Virus record (IMG/VR): IMGVR_UViG_3300009788_000007
Coordinates: 16,601-80,600 of that record
DNA: 64,000 nt
Source: a virus
Strand: one strand, 5' to 3'
Shown here piece by piece: positions 7,083 through 58,000 of this stretch (its first letter is position 1; every line of letters starts with the position of its first letter). The position numbers and the translations under genes were made by a program. The notes under the pieces were generated by a model. That model saw only the letters and a program-made list of their open reading frames with translations. It did not search any database and had not been told where the DNA came from.

Positions 7083-7205
7083 TTTTGGTGTTTGAGTGAA
7101 CGCCCCGCCTCCCTGTCTCTGGCACGCCTGCTACTCAGGGGGGCATTTTTAACACTAAAACTACAATTTCTCCCTATTATGTAGCCCTTTCGTATAATTA
7201 AAGTA

Positions 7206-22330: not shown

Positions 22331-23331
22331 TCTTTAGTGCCTGCATTATCTGCAAGCAGCACAATCATTGTTTCATCTTGCAGCAAGTTACCTAACTCAC
22401 CGCCTAACCCTATACCTTGTTCCGGTACAATTCTTAAAAGGTTTGAGCCACTATTTTCTAAATAGAAATATGGGCCTCCAGGTTCAAGGTCATCAACCAG
22501 CGGTAGGATTATTTCAAGATTTGGAATAACACCAGATGTCATACGCAATACTCGACCCATGGCTACTGATATACGGAAGTCTGCGATGATGCTAAAGTCT
22601 TTGCCACCACCATAAAAAAATTCAGATTCAGTAAAACTTTCATTACGAATTTCGACAATAGGGATACTTGCACTGGCTGCTTTAAATGCATTCCACGTGA
22701 TACTTAATAGTTTGTCAGCTTCAGTACTAAATCTGCAGGGCACATCAAATTCACCACCCCAGGTTAGCTGTACTCCTGTAGCAGGGGCAATAGTGAATGT
22801 TACTTTTCCTGTAGTCGTGTCAACTGAGAATCCAGCTGTTTGCAGCGTACCATCAAAGGCTATCTTTACAGTACCACTTCTGGGTTTGGTGATATTGCGT
22901 ATTTTGGTATTCAGACCATCCTGGTATCGCTTGATAAGTTGGAATTCTGTTTGAGAAGAATCACCCACACCAAATACCACATCTTCAGCATCTGGGAGCG
23001 CTGCCCCATCCCCAAAGGTAATATGGTTACTTGTTGTGGCGTAATCACCCCAATCTTTGAATCTGAAGGACCCCAGGGCCCCCTCACGGGCTAAATAGAA
23101 CTCCATTACAGCACTAAGGTCATCTTGATCCCGCACCCCGTAACGGGCGTTATATTGCCTCAGGGCATCCGTCCAACGTGCGGTACGATGTTCAGCACCT
23201 GAATCTGTGGTCACAATGGCCGTATTGTACCCAGGGCCACCCCTTGAACCAAAGCTTATATTATCAGGGAATAGTGGCTCATCAAAGCCTGCCTGAACAT
23301 CTAAATTAAATAGTGTTGACACCTGGGCCAT
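22312..23331 (-). CDS. DUF2460 distal tail protein with extra C-terminal domain
   Basis: FP.NISFGSRGGPGY.T.I....SG.E.R..RW; FRFKDWGDY; GEFDVPCRF. Confidence 0.9.
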   Translation of the reverse strand: MAQVSTLFNLDVQAGFDEPLFPDNISFGSRGGPGYNTAIVTTDSGAEHRTARWTDALRQYNARYGVRDQDDLSAVMEFYLAREGALGSFRFKDWGDYATTSNHITFGDGAALPDAEDVVFGVGDSSQTEFQLIKRYQDGLNTKIRNITKPRSGTVKIAFDGTLQTAGFSVDTTTGKVTFTIAPATGVQLTWGGEFDVPCRFSTEADKLLSITWNAFKAASASIPIVEIRNESFTESEFFYGGGKDFSIIADFRISVAMGRVLRMTSGVIPNLEIILPLVDDLEPGGPYFYLENSGSNLLRIVPEQGIGLGGELGNLLQDETMIVLLADNAGTKEWVGLL

Positions 23332-35383: not shown

Positions 35384-35622
35384 ATTTAATCCTTGGGCGT
35401 CTCGCCCTGTTGGGTGGCGTCTCGCCACGTTTTAAAATACTGAGGTTTCGCTCAACTGCTTACTAAATAATATATGGTCTCAAAACAGACTTTTCAAACC
35501 CTTAAAATTTGGCGTTTCTGGTCCCTCCCTCCCTATAGGGGGAAATGTGGTTTTTAGAAAAAGTTTTAAATAGTCCTAAATAGTTACAAATATTTTAAAA
35601 TATTTCAAAGTATCTACACAAA

Positions 35623-37710
35623 TTAATCTAATTTTGCTTCAGCTGCACGCATCTGTGGAAGGGTAAGCTGCTTAGTTTTATCATTAAAAAAGAACTTATC
35701 GTTCAGCTTCCCGCGCCGAAATAACGCAGACCTTTCTTTGCCTAAAGCCATTTGCTGGGTAGCCTTTGACTGATTGCGTAACCACTGGGGGTATGTTTGA
35801 GTAGCCGGAACCTGCCCTTTAAAGGTATCGCTTGCTGATGCCCTGGTAGATGGTGGTAATTCATTAAGCCCTGGTATGCCTAAATCCTCAAATGATTTTA
35901 TTACAGGTACCGTGGTACTCCTGCAATTATGCACTAATAACCCATTAGCTAAATAAGTCTCGTCATCCACAACAGCTAGATTGTAAACATACCCGTTGTA
36001 GTACTCATCTACATTTGATATGCTTGATGAGGCAAACCAATTAGAGGGGGAGTTATGGCTACGTTCACTAAAAAAGAACTTGAAAAAATTATTAAAAGAG
36101 AGCACTGGAAATTGGGTAAACCTCTTAGACAAATTGAAAGAGAACTTGGGGTAGGTAAAACTGTTGTGCAAAGTAGTTGCAAACGCTTGGGAATTAAGAC
36201 ACGCACCAGAACCGAGAGTATTAGAAGTGGGCACGCTAATGGCCATCTTAAGGGGGCATCTGGTGCTGACCATTGGAGAAAACAGAATATCAAAAAAAGT
36301 AAAAAGCTTGCTAAACAAAGTTCTGCAAGAATGAAGAAGTCTAACCCAATGTTTGATAAAGGCACTAAAGAAAAAATTCTTAAAACACGTGCTGATAATT
36401 ATAGTAAAAATCCAACAAGACATGAAGCGGCACTTATTAAAATATTTCAACGCAGGGGTATAATATTTTGTTTTCAAAAATCTGTCAGGGGTGGTATTGC
36501 TGATTTTACTTTTGGTAAAGTTATCCTTGAGATTGACGGTAGAGGACATGCCAGCAGAAAAACTGCTGATGCTATACGGGATAAGGTCCTCAATACACTT
36601 GGTTGGCATGTTGTGCGAGTTAGTCAAGACAGCCTGCGTGATTACAGACGACACCCCAACGGCCATTGGCATCTTAGTAAACTTTTCAAAGTTTTGAAAA
36701 AGTACATCACCTGTACAAACATCCCTAGCATTAAGCCATCCTCTGGTTTTGGTAAGTATCGGGTGGTCGTCCGTGAGGCTAACACAGGTATTGAAAGACG
36801 TTTTTAGTTTTTTAATTTTACCGTTATGTGATTTAGCCATAACTGTATAAACTTTTTTCCATCTGTTTAAATGTGTCAATACCTCGTCACCTACCTTAAC
36901 ATCTTCAATAGGTGTTAAACCTTTTTTTGTAGTTATTAGAGTACCCCCCACAAGCGCATTAAAATGTTGGGGAGGCCTGGGGCCTTCACCAATTGGGAAT
37001 ACCTCACCATCAAGAGAAGCGCAGATAGGTGTTGTACGGCTGTCTAGTGTTGCGACATATTTTACTTTATCAATCACATCAGAATTTGCTTCGTAGGTTG
37101 CTTCTCTTGCTTTTACAGTTACCTCGGTCACAGATGTGCGCACTAACGTCTGCGCGTTATGGCGAGTACCATTAAAAACACCATCTGAAAAACCTTGTGC
37201 TTTTGTGCCGACAATCCTACGCGTCATATCCGGGATACTGTCACCCTCTGCTAAACCTATACTAAGCCGTCTTGTAATTTCATTGGCGTCCCGGTCTGCA
37301 TACTGATTAAAATATTTTTTAATAGTTTGCCCTCTTACTTTACCATTTACAATTTGCCGCATCACTGCTTGAGAGGGTACAGTTAGTGCTAATGAAATAG
37401 GGGAATTTTTATTAATAATACGTATTTGATTCTCTGCTTCATTATTTGCAATGTCTAAAAGATCACTCTTAAGGTCAACACCTAAACCCTTGTACCCTTC
37501 ACGCAAAAGTATTGTGTATGCTTTTCGCATTCTGATAAATCTATCCGCTGACATATTTCTGCGCAGTCTGCGGTTTATCTCTTTTTCGACATCAGGCAGC
37601 ACATCATCATTAAGCGTGGCTAAAATTTTATTGACTTCTTTATTACGCAGGCGCTCTAAAAAAATAGCATGCTTTATGGCCTCATCTTGTATGTCGTCAT
37701 TTATTGCCAT
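35623..37710 (-). CDS. head morphogenesis protein (SPP1 gp7/MuF family) containing an intein
   Basis: YVATLDSRTTPICASLDG...PPQHFN|CRST motif split by the intein. Confidence 0.9.
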   Translation of the reverse strand: MAINDDIQDEAIKHAIFLERLRNKEVNKILATLNDDVLPDVEKEINRRLRRNMSADRFIRMRKAYTILLREGYKGLGVDLKSDLLDIANNEAENQIRIINKNSPISLALTVPSQAVMRQIVNGKVRGQTIKKYFNQYADRDANEITRRLSIGLAEGDSIPDMTRRIVGTKAQGFSDGVFNGTRHNAQTLVRTSVTEVTVKAREATYEANSDVIDKVKYVATLDSRTTPICASLDGEVFPIGEGPRPPQHFNALVGGTLITTKKGLTPIEDVKVGDEVLTHLNRWKKVYTVMAKSHNGKIKKLKTSFNTCVSLTDDHPILTKTRGWLNARDVCTGDVLFQNFEKFTKMPMAVGVSSVITQAVLTNSHNMPTKCIEDLIPYSISSFSAGMSSTVNLKDNFTKSKISNTTPDRFLKTKYYTPALKYFNKCRFMSCWIFTIIISTCFKNFFFSAFIKHWVRLLHSCRTLFSKLFTFFDILFSPMVSTRCPLKMAISVPTSNTLGSGACLNSQAFATTLHNSFTYPKFSFNLSKRFTQFPVLSFNNFFKFFFSERSHNSPSNWFASSSISNVDEYYNGYVYNLAVVDDETYLANGLLVHNCRSTTVPVIKSFEDLGIPGLNELPPSTRASASDTFKGQVPATQTYPQWLRNQSKATQQMALGKERSALFRRGKLNDKFFFNDKTKQLTLPQMRAAEAKLD
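35926..36957 (-). mobile_element. 344-aa intein starting with Ala and ending His-Asn before Cys+1
   Basis: Block A ALVGGTLITT..G..PIEDVKVGDEVLTH; block B LTDDHPILT..GW; blocks F/G VYNLAV.DDETYLANGLLVHN|C. Confidence 0.9.
36055..36807 (+). CDS. Vsr/DUF559-type endonuclease with N-terminal HTH/NUMOD3-like region, antisense inside the intein
   Basis: PTRHE..L...FQK....IADF....VILEIDG.GH......RD..L...GWHVVRV; RBS GAGGGGGAG just before the ATG. Confidence 0.85.
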   Translation: MATFTKKELEKIIKREHWKLGKPLRQIERELGVGKTVVQSSCKRLGIKTRTRTESIRSGHANGHLKGASGADHWRKQNIKKSKKLAKQSSARMKKSNPMFDKGTKEKILKTRADNYSKNPTRHEAALIKIFQRRGIIFCFQKSVRGGIADFTFGKVILEIDGRGHASRKTADAIRDKVLNTLGWHVVRVSQDSLRDYRRHPNGHWHLSKLFKVLKKYITCTNIPSIKPSSGFGKYRVVVREANTGIERRF

Positions 37711-37935: not shown

Positions 37936-39444
37936 TCACTCGTCCATTTCAAGTTCGCTATCATCTTGGTTTGTCCCATCATCATCGGGGTCATCATCGT
38001 CCCCTGTAATAAGTCCTAAAGCTGGGCCTTCAGCTAAAATAGCTTCTATCTCATCTTCAATATTTACATTTTCAGATAACACACTTCGGCGTTTCAACTC
38101 AGTTAAAAATGTAGTTTGTGATATTTCTTTAGCAGCTCTCATGTTAAAAAGAATTGTTAAATCTTCTTTATTGCTAAACACCACACCAAAGTCATTAAAA
38201 ATATCAAATGAAAAATCTTTAGGTAATTTTTTATTTAACCACCGCGCAGAAAATTCTGCAGATTTATTTAGGGCTTCTTCTTCTCGCCTAATCCAAGCTT
38301 GTACAGCACTCTCATTGTCATTAGCATCAATGGCCCTACCAGTAGCACTTACAGAAGGGCTTGTAATAACCAAAGGTTCAGTACCTACCACAGTCATTTT
38401 ATTTTCGATATCCATGATATCATCTTGACCTACTTTAATTGAATTTCCTGAATGTTCTACCCATTTCATATCAGCCTCATGGTTCGCTGTAGCAAATTGT
38501 GCACGAGGTCCTATAGTAATACCATTATCTACTTGTTCTTGTGTGACACCTTTAATAAAAAGTACACCTGCACGTGCAACATTAAGTAAGCTGCGTTGGT
38601 CAGAGTATGATTGCCAATGTGTAAGGTTTAACCAAGCTAGTTTTAAAAATGGTGGCTTTGCTGTTAGGTCTCCATCTTGATCTGTGTAGTAAGTAACTAA
38701 AGGTATCTCCCCAAATGTATGTGTGTCACTTTCCTTTAGAACCCAAGTACTAGAGCTATCAGCATTTTTACTTTCTTGCCATAGTTCCCATTTTGTACGT
38801 GTCCATCTTTTAATTTGTTTAACTACTTCGTCCCCAAAATCACCTTCACTAGAAATAAAACTTTGAAAATACCTTATCTCATCTAACTTTGTGTCCTCTC
38901 CCACCTTCCAGAAGAACAAATTTAACGGCGAAATCTCAGACCATACAGGCCTTGCCCCTGCAGATTTTTCTTCTGCTATTGTGGCTGTTCTTGGCACATC
39001 ATTTTTATCAAAAAATTTCATTGTGTTAAAATCTACAAGTACATGTGAAAGGCCCCACTTTAAAGATGTTCTAAAAAGGTCATACCCAAACTGAGTTACA
39101 CTCCTGCCTTTTTTATCCACATCTTTAAAAACAGCTTCTAAAGCAGGGTCTAAACCTTCAGTAGGAGCCCATGTAACCTGTTTTTTAAATGGTTTTGCAG
39201 ACAGCCTATCAATAGTGTTTCCCAAACCTTCAAACAAAAATGATCTATCTAACCTGTTTTCATATGCAGTTTGTGATTCGGCTTCCTGCTTAGGTAGCCA
39301 CTTGGTAGCACCTTTACGCATTGCTTTTGTGCCATCAAGTAAATCTGATATTAAATCCCAAGAGAACTTTTCACGCATGGTATCATAGCGTACTGAAGGT
39401 GTAGATACATCAGCTTTTTTAGGAGTACTTACAGTGTTCACCAT
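37936..39444 (-). CDS. portal protein (DUF4055-like)
   Basis: DLLDGTKAMR..WLPK..AES..AY..RL; EIPLV..Y; PPFL.LA.LNL.HWQSYSD. Confidence 0.9.
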   Translation of the reverse strand: MVNTVSTPKKADVSTPSVRYDTMREKFSWDLISDLLDGTKAMRKGATKWLPKQEAESQTAYENRLDRSFLFEGLGNTIDRLSAKPFKKQVTWAPTEGLDPALEAVFKDVDKKGRSVTQFGYDLFRTSLKWGLSHVLVDFNTMKFFDKNDVPRTATIAEEKSAGARPVWSEISPLNLFFWKVGEDTKLDEIRYFQSFISSEGDFGDEVVKQIKRWTRTKWELWQESKNADSSSTWVLKESDTHTFGEIPLVTYYTDQDGDLTAKPPFLKLAWLNLTHWQSYSDQRSLLNVARAGVLFIKGVTQEQVDNGITIGPRAQFATANHEADMKWVEHSGNSIKVGQDDIMDIENKMTVVGTEPLVITSPSVSATGRAIDANDNESAVQAWIRREEEALNKSAEFSARWLNKKLPKDFSFDIFNDFGVVFSNKEDLTILFNMRAAKEISQTTFLTELKRRSVLSENVNIEDEIEAILAEGPALGLITGDDDDPDDDGTNQDDSELEMDE

Positions 39445-39697: not shown

Positions 39698-39949
39698 CTA
39701 AAAATTATCTATGGTCATATCATCATGTGTATGGCGGTCTTCACCACCTGGGGAAAATGTCACTTCAAACTTCTTTTTATCACCATCCCACCACATAGAC
39801 CAATTATGATCATGAAATCTTGAAGTGCGTGTACCGTCTAAAGTAGTTTTGCCAAATGCATGTGTTGCATTGTCATCAAGCCTTTTACCGTCTTCTTGCA
39901 TTGGCACAAACGCATGGCTATGGCCGTTAACTTCTGATGTTCTGGGCAT
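39698..39949 (-). CDS. small His-x-His repeat protein
   Basis: GHSH, FHDH, RHTH motifs. Confidence 0.6.
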   Translation of the reverse strand: MPRTSEVNGHSHAFVPMQEDGKRLDDNATHAFGKTTLDGTRTSRFHDHNWSMWWDGDKKKFEVTFSPGGEDRHTHDDMTIDNF

Positions 39950-40161
39950 TATATCTTCTTTCCTTGAGATGACTTATCGCCGTCACGTGAAGCTGCAAAA
40001 CCAAGCAGGACGCCAACAGCCCCCAAAACTATTTTCCACTCTGGGTTAGTTGTGGGGTCATCGTCAATGTAGTACTGCACTTGTGGAAAAATAATAGCAC
40101 CTGCAGTGACAACACCTGCAGCAGTAGTTTTCCAATTAGTTAAAAATTTAGGTTTCTTCAT
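39949..40161 (-). CDS. putative holin (two hydrophobic segments)
   Basis: MKKPKFLTNWKTTAAGVV...IVLGAVGVLLGFAASRD; start at the internal MKKPK. Confidence 0.55.
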   Translation of the reverse strand: MKKPKFLTNWKTTAAGVVTAGAIIFPQVQYYIDDDPTTNPEWKIVLGAVGVLLGFAASRDGDKSSQGKKI

Positions 40162-40288
40162 ATCCCATTCCTTTGCTAAAAGTATTTCAATAATAGCAAA
40201 AGAATTTATTTTTACCACATGAGGTTATTTAAGTATGATTTAGCAGCCTGCTCCCTATAGGGAGCGAGGGAGGGAGGTAAATAAATAG

Positions 40289-40320
40289 AAAAACCCCAAA
40301 TGACATAATCAAATGGGGTA
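40289..40320 (-). terminator. terminator ending the small-gene island
   Basis: ACCCCA..TGGGGT stem followed by a T run on -. Confidence 0.45.
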
Positions 40321-40368
40321 AAAAGTAATTATTATGTGCTTAATATTATAGCAGATTTCTTATCTGGT

Positions 40369-41401
40369 TTATACTCTGTTCAATCCTTCCATTAAAATTT
40401 CTAAGGCTTTGTACTGGCTGTGGTGGAAAATTGTTTTACTCCTATCGTTTGCATTCTGAGCGTGAATGTACTCATCACAGTGTTTTTTGAATTCATCTTG
40501 ATAAATCTTTTTTAATTCTTCTTTTTCCATAATCTTCAATTCTTTCTGCCCTTGTTGGGCTGTTGGTGGTTAAGAAGTCGTTTCGATAGGGGTTATTTAG
40601 AGTTGACTGAATTTTTAAAACACTCAAAACTTAAGTACCCTAGATTTAAGTTAATTTTTCTTTGTTTGTAGATATCGTATGCCAATTCTATTTCCTTCAA
40701 TGTGTATTTCATAATCTTCAAATCTTTCTTAAGCATTTCTGCTAATCAATGGCCAGCGTCCCGCCTCGTATTCTTTTAAATCTGGGGCCGGTACGTACAC
40801 CCCATCTTTTGCTTTTTTATATTTTTCAAGTGCCAAAATATTTAAGTGGTCTTGTGGGCATGTGTGCCTTGTTTGCCGCGCTGTTATAAATTTTACTACT
40901 TGCATGGCTCTGACCAAACATTAGTAATTTCAACATCATTTTTAAACTGCAGAAATAAATATCCATGTAAATTATATAATGGCGTGCCTTCTTCTTTTTC
41001 GAAATCAAAATCAAAATAGTCTATATTTATTAGTTCTGATACAAGGGATTCGCAACCCGCAACTTCAGATAAAATACTTTGATCTATTGTTTTAATTTCA
41101 CCGTTACCTTCAAAATTAAGTTTCATAATCTTTTCACCTTTTGTCATTTCCATATAACTATAATACTAAACTACTGTACAGATGTACAGCAGAATAGTAT
41201 ATATTTTTAAAATTAGTTTAAATGTTTGAATTTTGCTGCATAGTTAACACATTTTATTAAAGCCTTGGCAAATTTACGTGCCCTTTTATCACTTTTTGGC
41301 CTGTGGTCATTAAAAAATATGGCCGTATCTACCATAGGGAATTTGTCTGATAACTTCTGCTTAACAAATTCCTGCAAAAATATAGGTTGTGGCTTATTCA
41401 T
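40369..41401 (-). other. island of small early-type ORFs (40369-40530, 40729-40917, 40896-41153, 41213-41401)
   Basis: Short ORFs, several preceded by the AAGATTATG leader repeat also seen at 8.4-8.8 kb. Confidence 0.55.
41159..41191 (-). promoter_or_regulatory. promoter with LexA-box-like palindrome
   Basis: TACTGTACAGATGTACAGCA; on - TGTACA-N17-TATTAT. Confidence 0.6.
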
Positions 41402-41648
41402 AATAAAAACTCCTTTTGCTAAGTCCTGTTACTTATGTAAAATCCCCAGGCACAAAGTACCTAGGGTAAAAAGTATTTGCTAATCTTTTTTCTTTGGCCA
41501 AAATTTAGAGATTAGCCAAACTGTGATATTTAATATCACAGTAAGTATGATAGCTGACCATATGATATAGCCAATATCTCCTTGTCTTGCCTCTCCTGGA
41601 AAGTCTTTTGCAATTAATAGTAGCATAATGTATACTCCTTTCTACTAG

Positions 41649-41683
41649 AAAAAGGCCCTGTTAACAGTTAAGTTAACAGGACC
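41649..41683 (-). terminator. Rho-independent terminator
   Basis: CCTGTTAAC-N6-GTTAACAGG stem then GCC-T5 on -. Confidence 0.75.
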
Positions 41684-41704
41684 ACAAACTAAAAGACTTA
41701 CTTT

Positions 41705-41917
41705 TTAAAGATCTTTGATACCTTGCATAATAGCTTCGATCTTTTGTATAGCAACGGTATGAAAAACTACTTCTGTGTTTGCTTTTTCTTTTTTCACATC
41801 GTCTGCAGCCTTCACAGCTTCATTAGCTGCTAATTCTGCTTTTGCTTTTAGTTCTCCATGCTTCTGCACTGCTTCCTCCAGTGCCTTAAGCATTTCTTCT
41901 TTGTCTTTTTGTACCAT
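41705..41917 (-). CDS. small coiled-coil protein
   Basis: Strong RBS AAAGGAGGG; Ala/Lys/Glu-rich. Confidence 0.65.
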   Translation of the reverse strand: MVQKDKEEMLKALEEAVQKHGELKAKAELAANEAVKAADDVKKEKANTEVVFHTVAIQKIEAIMQGIKDL

Positions 41918-41968
41918 AGGCGGTACCCTCCTTTCTGGCCTTTTGGCCGGTTAGTTGTTTTGTTTTAT

Positions 41969-42292
41969 TTAGCTTAAAACATCCTCCACATTTGCTACCC
42001 ATTTAGCCTTGCGGCCATCACTAACACCCTCACGTTTACTATGTGTGGCTTTAACAATCTTAAACCATGTGTCTATCATGTCATCTTTTAATTCGTGAGT
42101 TATCCAGTCACGACCACCTATGATTAGCTCAACTTTTCTACGCAAGCCAGAACCCAGCACTACTTGCGCTTTCCAGTCAACACCTACTTTATGTTGGTTA
42201 GTTACTTGCCCTTCTATTTGGTTATCCCTCACTGTATCAATAATGTGGCTCTTACTGATGAGTGTTTCTATTGATTCAAAAATATCTTTCAT
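41969..42292 (-). CDS. hypothetical protein
   Basis: AAGGA precedes MKDIFES; track start 42337 falls within the promoter. Confidence 0.55.
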   Translation of the reverse strand: MKDIFESIETLISKSHIIDTVRDNQIEGQVTNQHKVGVDWKAQVVLGSGLRRKVELIIGGRDWITHELKDDMIDTWFKIVKATHSKREGVSDGRKAKWVANVEDVLS

Positions 42293-42322
42293 TTTGTTTC
42301 CTTTGTCAGTTGTCATATAAAT

Positions 42323-42354
42323 ATTATCGTCTATCACTGTATGCGTGTACAGTA
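42323..42354 (-). promoter_or_regulatory. promoter with LexA-box-like palindrome
   Basis: CACTGTATGCGTGTACAGTA; on - TGTACA-N17-GATAAT. Confidence 0.55.
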
Positions 42355-42514
42355 CTTTATTAAAAAAATATTAAAATAAATATAATAGTGCGTTTTTTGT
42401 AAAATAATGGGGGTTATGGGGAAATAAAAGTACAGGAGGAAGGGCATACCGACCCTTCCCTTAATTACATCCTAGCATTGGAAGATACTCTCAATAATTA
42501 ATTCCTGCACAAAA

Positions 42515-42755
42515 TGGTGGGATCTGCCAGATGTTTCCAGCATCGTGACTTTCTAATCACCGCAAAGGCTGTTAACCTTGAACGCCCATAATATGGGAGG
42601 AAGGGGAGGGACTTGCACCCCCTTTTAAATCCCCTCATCGCGTTTAGGGAAATACGGCTATCCGCTGCCTCGATTCTTCAGCATCACTTCCTATAAAAAA
42701 AATATGGTGGACGCGGCTAGGTGAGGGTGTCCCTCGATGTTCCCTACCCGTTTCC
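42515..42755 (-). ncRNA. cluster of three CCA-terminated tRNA-like structured RNAs
   Basis: GC-rich units 42705-42755, 42594-42692 and 42515-42587, each with paired ends and 3' CCA, separated by short AT linkers; no canonical anticodon arm. Confidence 0.5.
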
Positions 42756-42892
42756 ATGTAAAAATTGATGCTCGTTTGCCTCGTCACTTAATTTTAATGG
42801 TGATATTCTAGCCTAGATTGCTTATCGGTTAGGCGGTGATCTCTTATCACTATTGGCTATCCATTAAAAATAACATCTGCTTAACAGTATAC

Positions 42893-44386
42893 CTAAATAT
42901 CAGTAATCGCAATACCACCTTCTTCAATTGGGAATTTATTGACCACATAGTACCCTACTGCATCGGAAATGTGGGTTAAATGCTTTTCTGACTTTTTATC
43001 AATCTCGCCGCTGCCGCCCTCGACCACAGAAACACCTTCAAAATCTTTTACCACATGTGGTGCGTTATCGGGGTCAACTAAAAACCTTATCTGGCCGTCC
43101 ATAGTTTGTATACGTGAATTCATAGCATTAACACGCACACGCTCTGGTCCGTTTTTATTTGCAACTCTATATTTTAATCGAGTGCCAAACACAGGTTTTA
43201 ATTTCTTGCGTATCAAATCCCAGTCAGACCCGGCTACCTTTGCGCTGCCCTGATTACCCCCTGTAGAATCACCATATAAATATACATCACCTGTATGGTG
43301 TTTCCAGTCTTTGATTATTCGGTCACAGACTATCAATGTATTTGAATGCCTGGGAATATAAACTTCACCTATTACTGCAGTGAATCGTCGGGACACCTTT
43401 GGGTTTTTGCCTTTATACAATTGCTCCTGCATAACTGCACAAACACCTGGAGCGATATTAAAATCAAAGGCTAAGATAATATCTTTGTCTGGGTCGTAAT
43501 CTAAAGATTCAACGGCGTGCACCTCTGAATCAAAATCATAATAGGCCCTGCCCTGGAAATTAATAAAGAGCCCCAGGACCTCCTGCCGATATGACAGCTC
43601 ATCCATGTCAGCTTTCATGGCTTCAATTTCACTCGGGTCTAAAATGTCTTCAGCTGACCAATGGAAGTACCCCCAATTTTTATTACGCTTACCTTTGGCC
43701 TTCATTGCCAAATCGTAGTAATGGTTGCGCCCTTCAGGTACACCGATAAACCAAGCGAACCCAGGGCGGCCTATGGTGGCCAAAGCTGGACGGATATGGT
43801 CTATCCATGCAGTCTTTTTCATGTTGCCGAACTCGTCAAGTATGATGCCATCCAGAGGTGAGCCCTCAATACGCTCCGGTTTGTCCATCCCCATCACCTG
43901 GATTTTAGGACCATGTACCAATGTAATTGTCAAGTCAGATTCTGATATTTTGTCAACACAGGATTTAGGCACCAGCTGTTTCAGGTCTTCCCAGTAGATT
44001 TGCTTAGCCTGGGCTCTGGTGGGCGCTGCAGCCACAAACCACCCGTTAGCGTGCATACAACGCAAGGCTTTGATAATAAGTGCCCTTTTGCAGTATTCCG
44101 TCTTACCAGAGCGCCTGCCGGACGGTACAACGACAAAACGCTTTATTCCCGACACGATGGTGTGGTACAGCGCTAAACGTTCCTTGTGTGGCCTGAGAGG
44201 GTACCAGCGATGCCCCAGGGTGGTGTTTACGGCCTGCTGTATGGCGTCATCGGCTTCCTTGAGGGATGCAGCCTTGATCTCATTCTCACCAATAGGGTCT
44301 TTTTTGGCTTTTTTTGGGTGTTTTAAGGCCTTCTGCCCTTTGACCAAGCGCACCGATTTCTTCAAATTTACTGATTTTGTGGTCAT
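42893..44386 (-). CDS. terL: terminase large subunit
   Basis: Walker A SGRRSGKT; APTRAQAK; Walker B IILDE; GVPEGRNH; nuclease AFDFN and HISDAVGY. Confidence 0.95.
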   Translation of the reverse strand: MTTKSVNLKKSVRLVKGQKALKHPKKAKKDPIGENEIKAASLKEADDAIQQAVNTTLGHRWYPLRPHKERLALYHTIVSGIKRFVVVPSGRRSGKTEYCKRALIIKALRCMHANGWFVAAAPTRAQAKQIYWEDLKQLVPKSCVDKISESDLTITLVHGPKIQVMGMDKPERIEGSPLDGIILDEFGNMKKTAWIDHIRPALATIGRPGFAWFIGVPEGRNHYYDLAMKAKGKRNKNWGYFHWSAEDILDPSEIEAMKADMDELSYRQEVLGLFINFQGRAYYDFDSEVHAVESLDYDPDKDIILAFDFNIAPGVCAVMQEQLYKGKNPKVSRRFTAVIGEVYIPRHSNTLIVCDRIIKDWKHHTGDVYLYGDSTGGNQGSAKVAGSDWDLIRKKLKPVFGTRLKYRVANKNGPERVRVNAMNSRIQTMDGQIRFLVDPDNAPHVVKDFEGVSVVEGGSGEIDKKSEKHLTHISDAVGYYVVNKFPIEEGGIAITDI

Positions 44387-44736
44387 ACGTACTTAATTAT
44401 AACAACAGCTTTGCAAGATTCCTTGAACAAATCTATAGTGTGCCGGGTGCCGGGGGATTGGCCATCCCAGAAAGCTATGCATTCATCAGCGCGTTCTTCG
44501 ATCTCAGCATTACGGATAAAGCCTGCATCCTTGCCGTACAGGTCCCAGTCAGCCTTTAATTTTTCGTAGGGTATGTGCCAAACTTTTTTAGCCAGCTTCA
44601 CTGCGCAATCATCAGCCCCTTTGGCATCTCCGGTAATAATTTTAATACAGTCCAAATCGTAACGTTGCTTAATCTCATTAATCATAAATCTAGGTCGACA
44701 AAAATCACGACCACCAACTACTGCAAGGTTAAGCAC
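44383..44736 (-). CDS. SLOG-family (DUF2493/YspA-like) protein
   Basis: LAVVGGRDF; IITGDAKGAD; ADW..YGK.AG.IRN; AFWDGQSPGT. Confidence 0.85.
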   Translation of the reverse strand: MLNLAVVGGRDFCRPRFMINEIKQRYDLDCIKIITGDAKGADDCAVKLAKKVWHIPYEKLKADWDLYGKDAGFIRNAEIEERADECIAFWDGQSPGTRHTIDLFKESCKAVVIIKYV

Positions 44737-54949: not shown

Positions 54950-55023
54950 CTAATACAATCATACCTCTTTACTGCATTTACCCTTAGTCTACAGCATTGC
55001 ACCCCTAGTCCCTCAGTCCCTCC

Positions 55024-58000
55024 CTATGGGGTAGGTAGTACAGTTTCGTCAGTACCTATTAAATATTTCCAAAATTTATACATAAACCCTGATAAATGTA
55101 TTGATGGGTGTAACCTATACACTGCATAAATAACTTCAGGGTCGGTCACTGCATCGCACTCTTCCATGTCTAATATATTCCATGTGTAGTGCACTGCATC
55201 TTTATTACGTGTAAACATTGTATAGTTAAAAGGGTCTTCATCCTCTAACCATACCTGCACATAACCGTCTTGTGGGCCACCTATAAACTTATACTGTTTA
55301 GCATTACCTTTTTTATTACTGCGCTGCATTAAATTATTCCAAGCATCCTTGGCTGCTGTGATATTACTTTTAGCCTCAACACTAAACTTCTTACCACAGC
55401 TTGCATTGCTACATGTAAAAGTATGTGATGCAAATAATTTTTGGTACATAGGGTGTGCCCCGCATCCTGCACAATAATCTAATACAAATAAATGTTTATT
55501 AATTACTATAGTATATGTTGGTTTAGGTTGGCTTGGTAGCATTTTAAAGGCTTTCTCTTGCACATAACTTATACCGGCCTCTACAGGTCCTTCTGTACCA
55601 CCTCTACATTCTGCACTAATCATCTCATTCCAATGGTCAACGGCTTCTGCAACACTGCCACACTGTACCCTGGGGGTATGCGTGCACTTTTCATCCTCAC
55701 ACTGCATCACATGCTGGCTGGTAACCATTATCTCTGTGTACTCTGGCCTGCTGCCGCACACGTAACAACAATACACTTTGTACATAGTGCCATTTATTTC
55801 AATGGGTTTAATCATAATTCAATTACCACGGGTTTACCTACCATATTGCCATCCCAGTCATTCGGTGCAGAGGCATCAAGCATTTCCCATTGTTTCTGTG
55901 TAACTAAAATACATGTCAAATTCCCAACATATACATGCTGTTTATCTGCCCAATAAGTTCTTAACTTACAAATAAATTCATCAGGTGTGGTAAGTGGTTC
56001 ACTAGTTAAATTAATAACATACTTAGGTCGCCTAACATTTTCTAATTTATGGTTTAAAGCCTCTTCAGCTGTGTGTGGCTTGTTCATTAGTTACGCCTTT
56101 CTTCAATCGCTTCTGCACATACTGCACTAAATTACCAAGTAACAATTCATGCGTTTTACCACGTGCTACGGGCTGCTCGGGCGCTCGATCTACATAATTT
56201 TGATTAAGTACCCAAGCAGCATATTTACCCTCTGTAGTAGCACCTATAGAACGCCCAACAGTGTACAGCACGCCATCTTTGCCTGAATAAATTGTGCCTA
56301 CTTTGTACAAACAATTACCAACAACATCTTCAGTTTTCATTATACAAAGCACCATGTCAAAAGCTTATAGCATAGCCCAATTAAAACCAATAGCACCAAC
56401 ACTACAAAAAATATAAAAGTAAAATAACACCCAGTAGCTTTAGGTTTTAAAAAGCTAAAAATGTCATTACATAATTCTGCAACTATTTCTTCTGTGGCGT
56501 CCTTAGTAGCATCTTCAATAATCTCATCTATTTCCTGGCCTAAATTCTTATAGTCATTCATTTAACCATCTCCATTACAGCCTGCAATGCTGCGTACTCA
56601 GGGTTTAAAAATACTGGCATAGCATTAAATATATTAAAGGCTACCGCACACATAGCAAATATTAAACCGCATCCTGCAAATATTACAGGTAAATAATTGT
56701 CACTATCCCATTCAGGTAAGTCTTTAATTTCTTTATAGCCTTCCCCATACTTAGGTATCCGTTTTTCAATATTATGTTTTTTAGCAGCCTCATTTTTTTC
56801 TTTTGTTTCTTTTAAATCTGCATTAAATTTATCTAACTTATTTTTATGCCTCTTTTTTTCAAAATCAAAAATAAGCGCTAACACAATACTAAAAAACAAC
56901 CAAATAAAAATATCTGAGAGTTCATTAAGTATTTGCTGCTTAACAAAAATAGGCCAAAAGTGTTCTACACCTGTACCTAACTTATCTGCAATAACATCAA
57001 AAGCCTCTATAACCTTTTGTTCTACATTTTCCATTTTTTCCTACTTTCTAAATTACTTTCTTATCCCACGGCATTTTAAAAATTTTATAATCAGGCACTC
57101 CTGATATATTTTTATTAAGCCCTATACCTATACGCTTATTTGCATCATAGCATTTTCTGCACATCCTTGCACCTGCAAAATAATAGCTGTACACATGCCA
57201 CCCATTACAGCTGCTACAACTACACACTACCAAAACTTTCTAAAATGGTTAAGGCCGCATTAACATACTCTTCTTGATGCTGTGTAAACCCACATGCTTT
57301 AATATTAGTAATTAACTTATCTAACTCTCCAACAACATTATCAACTTCTTCAGCCCTGTACACCTCAACACCTTCAGAAGGTATTTTTACTAGCTGGCCT
57401 TCACACTCTGTATTAAGGGTAGGTATAGGTGCCTGGGTACTATTCATGCCTCTATCTACATGTTTTGTCTGTGCACCTAATTTATATTTTCTCATTCGCT
57501 TTCTTTCTCCATTTTATAAAACTGTATTTATACCCCCAGTAGGTTTTATGGAATGCCCACTGTTTACTTTTGACTATAAAAGCTATGAATTCAGTGAAAG
57601 AATTTGTCATAGCAATACAGTACTTCTCGCCTTCACTCTCGCCGTGGCTGAATCTCATTAGCTTTTTCCTGTTCAGGTGTGGGGAATAGTTTTAAATCTG
57701 TTAGGTAACAGTAAGCACACCATTCACCTCTTATTAAATGTGGTTCACAGACATCATCATTGTAATGAAGGCAACCGTCACTTCCCTCCAGTAAAAACTT
57801 AACGCTCTCCATAAAATCAGCAGGGTCTTTTATACCCTTGAATTGCTTATGTAACGCAACAGCCTCCGCAAGCTCCTCTGTGGTTAGGTCGGCTGTGAGG
57901 TTTGCTATTTTAAGAAACTTAGCAGCCTTTTTATCAGCTTCTCTAGAGTGTTCCTCGTAATATGGATAGAAAACAATAGTAACTCCATACCCTCTTTTCT

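Follow-up and report, generated by a model that had tools for sequence, protein, structure and literature searches.

The DNA considered here is a window of 64,000 nucleotides, bases 16601-80600 of an 80.6-kb virus record from IMG/VR that carries direct terminal repeats and is rated complete. The G+C content of the window is 0.38, and nearly all of the genes are oriented on the minus strand. One of these is terL, the gene for the large terminase, whose product is identified by a weak match to the Pfam family Terminase_6N, by thousands of TerL homologues, and by its match to the annotated terL genes of GenBank phages. The start of terL is overlapped by an open reading frame of 117 amino acids (44383-44736, minus strand), which aligns with the opening quarter of PHROG 289 (500 positions, "GTP-binding domain"; E 2e-24). 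The structural genes include those for a portal and for a MuF-like head protein, and the tail module is GTA-like, with members of the DUF2460, BR0599, and Rcc01698 families.

After the terL stop codon comes a stretch of 555 nt (42338-42892) without any open reading frame of at least 60 amino acids; no gap of this type in the window is larger. Small open reading frames within this gap (46 and 47 amino acids) were considered and rejected; they have no ribosome-binding site and, as judged by eye, an odd composition. The gap and its surroundings hold the following features, given in the order in which the minus strand would be read.

42893..44386, minus strand: terL (large terminase), 497 amino acids, with its TAG stop codon at 42893-42895
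42798..42870, minus strand: structured segment following terL, predicted to fold as two small hairpins within a 9-pair A/U-rich stem that holds a CCA
42705..42755, minus strand: unit a, a 51-nt imperfect rod of 15 pairs, with U at -1 and an ACCA tail (minimum free energy, MFE, -20.3 kcal/mol; z -2.6)
42693..42704, minus strand: A/T-only, T-rich spacer between a and b, 12 nt
42594..42692, minus strand: unit b, 99 nt, ending in C-CCA (or in U-CCCA, for a helix of 7 pairs; z +0.9)
42588..42593, minus strand: A/T-only spacer TATTAT between b and c; together with the flanking CCC and GGG, a small palindrome like the regulatory core motif of the phage
42515..42587, minus strand: unit c, 73 nt, with three hairpins closed by a 3-pair GGG/CCC stem, an ACCA tail, and U at -1 (z -1.45)
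42430..42514, minus strand: Y-shaped terminator structure, 85 nt, whose core hairpin (42437-42460) is followed by a U-rich run, from a terminator scan (z -3.9)
41969..42337, minus strand: the next open reading frame, 122 amino acids without a family match, which opens a block of ~2.1 kb that is absent from L002, a related contig
37936-39444: portal gene
35623-37710: gene for the MuF-like head protein, with an intein

An earlier note on this DNA had proposed that an array of CCA-ended, tRNA-like units lies here, and units a, b, and c read true on the minus strand, both in sequence and in coordinates. All three are built to a common plan, in which the first bases of the unit pair with the bases that stand immediately 5' of its N-CCA. 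Their G+C contents are 0.63 (a), 0.54 (b), and 0.51 (c). The spacers, TATTTTTTTTAT and TATTAT (12 and 6 nt), are made of A and T alone, with no G or C, just as had been described. No direct repeats are found among the units. Among the sequencing runs listed, the source DNA sample alone contains the array stretch, and no RNA run is listed; within that sample, the array shows no sequence variants.

The terminal helix of unit b is formed by AGGAAGTG, which pairs with CCCTTCCT (8 pairs, one U.C mismatch). Two bases past its 5' strand stands a D-like arm (GCTG/CAGC, 4 pairs, 11-nt loop), and a T-like arm, GGGGG-TGCAAGT-CCCTC (42606-42622), abuts its 3' strand. The T-like loop has 7 nt on a 5-pair stem; its U1 and A5 fit the T-loop consensus, but its position 2 is G. 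Two irregular hairpins do indeed occupy the space between these arms. No T-loop is present in units a and c, whose uninterrupted closing pairs number only 3 each. A U at -1 precedes both of them; it precedes b only if the helix of b is counted as 8 pairs. Set beside the single-stranded 3' RCCA of hairpin substrates for RNase P, units a and c have A-CCA together with the U at -1, and unit b has C-CCA or U-CCCA.

Are these units decoding tRNAs? The earlier note had supposed that they are not, and this stands, since searches for tRNAs with ARAGORN and with Rfam both came back empty. ARAGORN at its default settings finds no tRNA and no tmRNA in the window or in the whole 80.6-kb genome. Rfam returns no family at its gathering score, with tmRNA again absent, and the tRNA model fails to appear at E <=10 even when the units are submitted one by one. 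Further, a 5-pair stem with a 7-nt anticodon loop at the right place is present in no unit.

More permissive searches do, of course, return candidates, and these were rejected. ARAGORN reports unit b as a "tRNA-Thr(cgt)" at 80% thresholds only, where the genome yields 28 hits, which is noise. Its modes for permuted tmRNA, introns, and mitochondrial tRNAs likewise respond at lowered thresholds only, again as noise, and the tmRNA candidate lies on the opposite strand. The only tRNA-related family to appear in permissive Rfam searches, the tymovirus-type tRNA-like structure (TLS, RF00233), scores 9.5-12.5 bits on the T-like arm of unit b against a gathering score of 40 (E 6-8), which is the level of chance. 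With tRNA-Sec and allo-tRNA, unit b shares the 8+5 count only, and it has no Rfam tRNA-Sec match. Nor is a reading of the array as an attP-type tRNA 3' fragment of a temperate phage supported, as no integrase or recombinase family occurs among the 134 open reading frames of the complete genome (for PHROGs, among the matches listed). The same 134 reading frames, with the same scope, include no recognisable tRNA-related enzyme such as a CCA-adding enzyme or an RNA ligase, and no RNase P RNA is matched by Rfam in the genome.

The array had also been likened to a phage tRNA operon. This likeness holds for composition, for spacing, and for the CCA ends. In anatomy, non-decoding units that are arrayed in this way, each with a terminal helix and with a 3' end of the tRNA type, are in turn of the kind known from rnaC and rnaD of phage T4, which is a loose class and not a sequence family.

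A fourth CCA-ended unit had been suggested between terL and unit a. Its G+C is 0.38 and its z is -0.8, and its CCA lies inside the 9-pair stem in every regional fold. Because the CCA is base-paired in this predicted stem, the fourth unit is not supported. Within the hairpin that follows terL, 13 nt (42827-42839) are a perfect complement, in the sense of the minus-strand RNA, to 22397-22409 in the 3' part of the DUF2460 tail gene. A match of this kind is at the level of chance, with ~0.4 expected by a rough estimate.

Folding treats the three remaining units differently. When the whole precursor is folded, the closing stem of unit a forms with a probability of 0.97-0.99, and those of b and c have probabilities of about 0; the value for c rises to 0.35 if the span of a pair is limited to <=105 nt. 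Taken alone, unit b has a fold energy no better than that of shuffled sequence. For unit c, the minus strand gives an MFE of -21.9 and the plus strand one of -15.1.

Nothing else in the gap folds as well as the terminator structure, a three-way junction whose last arm is the terminator hairpin; none of 200 shuffled sequences folds as well. Like unit c, it folds better on the minus strand than on the plus strand, and the neighbouring genes are all on the minus strand. A simple scan of the minus strand finds no sigma-70-like promoter between terL and unit a. With no promoter before unit a and a terminator right after unit c, the simplest reading is that the array would be the tail of the terL transcript.

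These observations suggest a model to which we give a probability of roughly 0.4. Here, units a, b, and c would be non-decoding, CCA-ended small RNAs of the T4 rnaC/rnaD kind, cut from the 3' untranslated region of terL by enzymes that process tRNA. The anatomy, the composition, and the tiling of the units are read directly from the DNA; from these we infer co-transcription with terL, processing, stability, and function. Under the model, the terL transcript would carry three small RNA genes in its 3' untranslated portion, ahead of the terminator. Each would have a compact body whose terminal helix leaves the N-CCA single-stranded, with a U before its first pair and a trailer of A and U only. 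The U at -1, the closing helix, the N-CCA, and the A/U trailer are the marks that bacterial tRNA-maturation enzymes would read. RNase P would then cut at the 5' end of each unit, and the A/U spacer would be removed as far as the CCA by RNase E together with 3' exonucleases. The products would be stable RNAs of 51, 99, and 73 nt, unable to read codons and mimicking the acceptor end of a tRNA. One report describes that, for a small substrate other than tRNA, cleavage by RNase P needed a 3' RCCA motif (PMC12710915).

The same anatomy would be expected if the units were cis-acting cutting marks only, with RNase P recruited to define the 3' end of the terL mRNA and with the released pieces having no role. 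The location of the array, between terL and its terminator, suits that purpose as well. One mark would suffice, however, and three different units are present. Further, no gene stands before the terminator on the same transcript, so there would be nothing for such marks to separate. We hold it to be quite improbable that the units are only marks.

How easily might such units arise by chance? For this purpose, a "CCA-closed unit" was defined as 45-105 nt in which three Watson-Crick pairs join the extreme 5' end to the bases before N-CCA, with G+C of at least 0.5 and with at least 5/6 A/T on both flanks; these criteria were set after the data had been seen. Counting both strands, 12 distinct ends of this type are present in the real genome, three of which form a head-to-tail tiling at 42515-42755. 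The others, where located, fall in coding sequence or in a terminator hairpin read backwards. For example, the terminator hairpin at 7086-7161 meets the definition by chance on the opposite strand, and a pair at 9.2-9.4 kb of the genome was rejected as antisense within an open reading frame of 124 amino acids. Under these post hoc criteria, a cluster of at least three within 300 nt appeared in one of 633 first-order Markov genomes, and a cluster of at least two in 44 of the 633.

A second test sought the frame of a tRNA: an acceptor with 6 of 7 pairs, a 4-pair D stem after 2 nt, a 5-pair T stem, a loop with U1 and A5, and abutting strands. Unit b is the only place in the genome where this frame is joined to an NCCA or NCCCA tail, with 0.1 expected per simulated genome, again by post hoc criteria. 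As both sets of criteria were chosen after seeing the data, these chance figures are rough. For a, b, and c the observation holds, and it is moderately unlikely to have arisen by chance.

Parts of the array also match sequence that recurs elsewhere in this phage. The string CCCTTCCTCC occurs only twice in the 64 kb, both times on the minus strand: at 42435-42444, in the 3' arm of the terminator, and at 42596-42605, in the 3' strand of unit b (0.04 expected). In both, it is the 3' strand of a helix, opposite a G/A-rich 5' strand, and it contains CCTCC, which is anti-Shine-Dalgarno-like. In addition, the genome has five copies, all of them non-coding, of a G-rich motif in two parts (bipartite; A/T-GGGA, 2-9 bases, GAGGGA-C/G), where 0.08 were expected and simulation, repeated 200 times, gave at most 1.

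35521-35534, minus strand: bipartite motif
40259-40276, plus strand: bipartite motif
55008-55025, minus strand: bipartite motif
42729-42745, minus strand: bipartite motif, inside unit a
42594-42612, plus strand: bipartite motif, over the T-like arm and the 3' strand of unit b

The first three of these are palindrome sites of the late operons, which stand before the scaffold/capsid, holin-like/portal, and small-terminase genes. Further, CTCCC followed by an A/T core and GGG is found at 4 places only, one of which is the junction of b with c. Read on the minus strand, this junction has a C-rich tract, CTCCC, an A/T core, and GGG, and the site at 40250-40265 has the same build; that site lies on the same strand and precedes the holin-like gene by 32 nt. 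The string GGGGTGCAA from the T-like arm of unit b recurs after the site at 55008. The C-rich tract of unit b is a perfect complement, over 9-10 nt, of the G-rich leaders at two of the regulatory sites; at one of these, 42604-42613 is complementary to the leader at 55015-55024 over 10 nt. All of these motif patterns were defined after the sites had been seen.

As a separate observation, CTCCC followed by TATTATG is found at 7170-7184 (plus strand), after the DNA polymerase gene and upstream of genes on the plus strand. Its build, and its orientation relative to the genes, are those of 40250-40265 and 42585-42599.

The motif copies invite a different view of the region, in which it would be a structured, regulatory intergenic segment specific to this phage, with hairpins, a terminator, and copies of its own motif, and in which the CCA ends would be incidental. 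The b/c junction would then be a further copy of the site before the holin-like/portal operon and could be a promoter or a protein-binding site; if so, unit c might be transcribed separately, in a short RNA that ends with the terminator. Another possibility is pairing of the C-rich tract with the G-rich leaders of late mRNAs. Such a view would accommodate the disappearance of the closing stems of b and c from the precursor folds. The motif copies in themselves weaken unit b as an independent CCA end, since the CCCA of b and the GGG of c can be read as the two halves of one motif site.

Against this view, the b/c junction has an A/T core of 7 nt, where that at the other sites is 3-4 nt; no -35-like hexamer precedes the junction, and the promoter scan is empty there. 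Nor would regulation explain why the stems of a and c end in A-CCA exactly at the edge of an A/T spacer, or why three units tile in a row. Further, the bipartite motif is absent from the contig L002, whose post-terL gap nevertheless holds tRNA-derived elements. With these points, and with the post hoc nature of the patterns, we find a regulatory or structured region with incidental CCA ends somewhat unlikely.

Relatives speak both to this view and to the small-RNA model. The closest TerL homologues (P0002-P0007) are 66-74% identical to that of this phage. A scan with a TerL profile found one close locus, L002, a 5.8-kb IMG/VR contig whose TerL is 67% identical; elsewhere, the identities found in these scans were <=57% in metagenomes and <=53% in genomes. 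Scans of IMG/VR with TerL alone, with the portal, and with the 122-aa open reading frame returned nothing. Exact-pattern scans, with the T arm and acceptor strand of unit b and with the L002 element, returned nothing new. When the gap was compared by blastn with GenBank phages and with loci L002-L081, no match rose above chance.

L002 is syntenic with this phage. There, terL is followed by a gap of 470 nt, by homologues of 39949-40218 and 39698-39949, and then by the portal. The block at 40219-42337, small open reading frames and non-coding sequence that lie here between the array and the holin-like genes, is what L002 does not have. The post-terL gaps of the two phages do not align. That of L002 has two exact copies of the T-loop GGTTCGAATC, for which the relatives' loci examined give a background of 3.2e-5 per base, and these T-loops belong to two elements.

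L002:1551-1612: T-arm stub at the terL stop (Rfam tRNA 19.5 bits, E 0.24)
L002:1777-1857: 81-nt element (z -3.3) with an acceptor helix of 7-9 pairs, a perfect T arm, and GCCA; a single 10-pair hairpin stands where a tRNA would have its D and anticodon arms

ARAGORN at default settings misses both. A hairpin of the GGAAGGG type with a T-run, read as a terminator, is common to both phages; in this phage it follows the array, and in L002 it precedes the tRNA-like element. The post-terL slot is thus occupied in both phages by predicted tRNA-like, non-decoding elements, which are not orthologous. In more distant relatives (TerL 46-57% identical), the next gene mostly starts at once, and no such units are seen; none are seen in their larger post-terL gaps either. 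True tRNA genes do lie 1.8-3.4 kb downstream of terL in three loci (L063, L080, L081), and upstream of it in a fourth (L083).

Given these tRNA genes downstream of terL in the wider TerL family, and given the tRNA-derived fragments in the gap of L002, the units might be remnants of a former phage tRNA cluster, pseudogenes that decay without function. Unit b looks the part: it keeps a tRNA-like frame with mismatches, its T-loop differs from a common form by a single base, and ARAGORN recognises it when thresholds are lowered and not otherwise. Units a and c, however, have no residual similarity to any tRNA model. They keep a G+C of 0.51-0.63 and intact helices in a genome of 0.38, where neutral decay should erode both, and all three units still pair their 5' ends with the bases that precede N-CCA. 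Decaying pseudogenes are, on this evidence, improbable.

The weighing of the small-RNA model can now be set out. Its tiling, the spacers free of G and C, the U at -1, and the tRNA frame of unit b were counted in its favor. So were the T-loop elements of L002, the likeness of fold to T4 rnaC, and the RCCA that RNase P needed on a small substrate other than tRNA, as were the better folding on the minus strand, the lack of a promoter after terL, and the strong terminator. Against it were counted the closing stems of b and c, which are not predicted in the full precursor, the z of +0.9 for b, and the tail of b, which is not RCCA. Also counted against it were the L002 gap that does not align and the L002 element that lies across the shared terminator; the overlap of b and c with the motif, the chance unit at 7086-7161, and the lack of a tRNA-related enzyme; and units a and c having no T-loop and just three uninterrupted closing pairs.

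What might such RNAs do? Several toxins are known to act on the 3' end of tRNA, including CCA-pyrophosphorylating toxins of the toxSAS/CapRel type and nucleotidyl-transferases of the MenT/AbiE type. The likeliest role for the units, speculatively, would be to engage proteins that recognise the acceptor helix and the CCA end. Candidates would be processing enzymes, or toxins by which the host modifies or cuts the 3' ends of tRNA late in infection. In a more specific form, which we regard as a long shot, RNAs with an acceptor and a CCA and no anticodon, made late along with the packaging genes by a phage that has no true tRNA, would serve as decoys or inhibitors of abortive-infection enzymes that attack the tRNA 3' end, or else the C-rich tail of unit b would have a second role, regulating late operons in antisense through their G-rich leaders. 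The decoy idea is pure inference. Three recent reports describe that phage tRNAs can neutralise defences that cut tRNA (PMC11464382, PMC11555353, PMC10264068).

The evidence comes from one genome only, which makes the array a candidate and not a result. Should the small-RNA model be true, this phage would have look-alikes of the acceptor end only and no decoding tRNA, which would isolate a non-decoding function in a form that is directly testable. Should the CCA ends prove incidental, the region still adds two sites to a regulatory motif specific to this phage.

Several known systems may be set beside the array. The tymovirus TLS (RF00233) is one, where the loop UGCAAGU and the C-rich strand of unit b align to the T arm of the model, at the level of chance. 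The tymovirus structure is the 3' end of a genome, whereas unit b comes from a DNA phage and would be internal to a transcript.

A second comparison is with allo-tRNA and tRNA-Sec. These have pair counts of 8/4, 9/3, and 8/5, a long D stem with a tetraloop, a long V arm, an acceptor branch of 12-13 pairs, and an anticodon arm; irregular 8/4 and 9/3 tRNAs occur in bacteria and in the tRNA clusters of phages (PMC5389517). Unit b resembles them in its 8 acceptor and 5 T-stem pairs, in its 99 nt, and in a start like that of many tRNA-Ser. It differs in having no long D stem with a tetraloop, no anticodon arm, and no clear V arm.

Canonical phage tRNA arrays (RF00005) are similar in another way, as they too consist of G+C-rich units of 50-100 nt with A/T spacers and encoded CCA, on the strand of the flanking genes. 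In the present array, however, no unit is recognised by ARAGORN or Rfam, and none has an anticodon arm. The hairpin and minihelix substrates of RNase P resemble units a and c more closely, with a helix, a single-stranded A-CCA, and a U before the first pair. Those model substrates are synthetic, whereas the helices here have internal mismatches and unit b has a pyrimidine before its CCA.

The closest comparison in our model is with rnaC and rnaD of T4, late RNAs whose function is still unknown (PMC9697503). Like the units of the array, they are small and non-decoding, and lie head to tail with short spacers, in their case beside a tRNA gene. When folded here, rnaC (species 1) has a terminal helix and a canonical T arm, with long hairpins where a D arm and an anticodon arm would be, and rnaD (species 2) is followed by an encoded CACCA. 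The 81-nt element of L002 is built like rnaC. Comparison by eye finds no sequence similarity between the T4 RNAs and the units, and a and c are without any T arm. The T4 RNAs adjoin eight true tRNA genes, whereas the present phage has none and its array lies in the 3' untranslated region of terL. The array may thus, tentatively, be viewed as a variant of the rnaC/rnaD kind, carried by a phage that has no true tRNA of its own.
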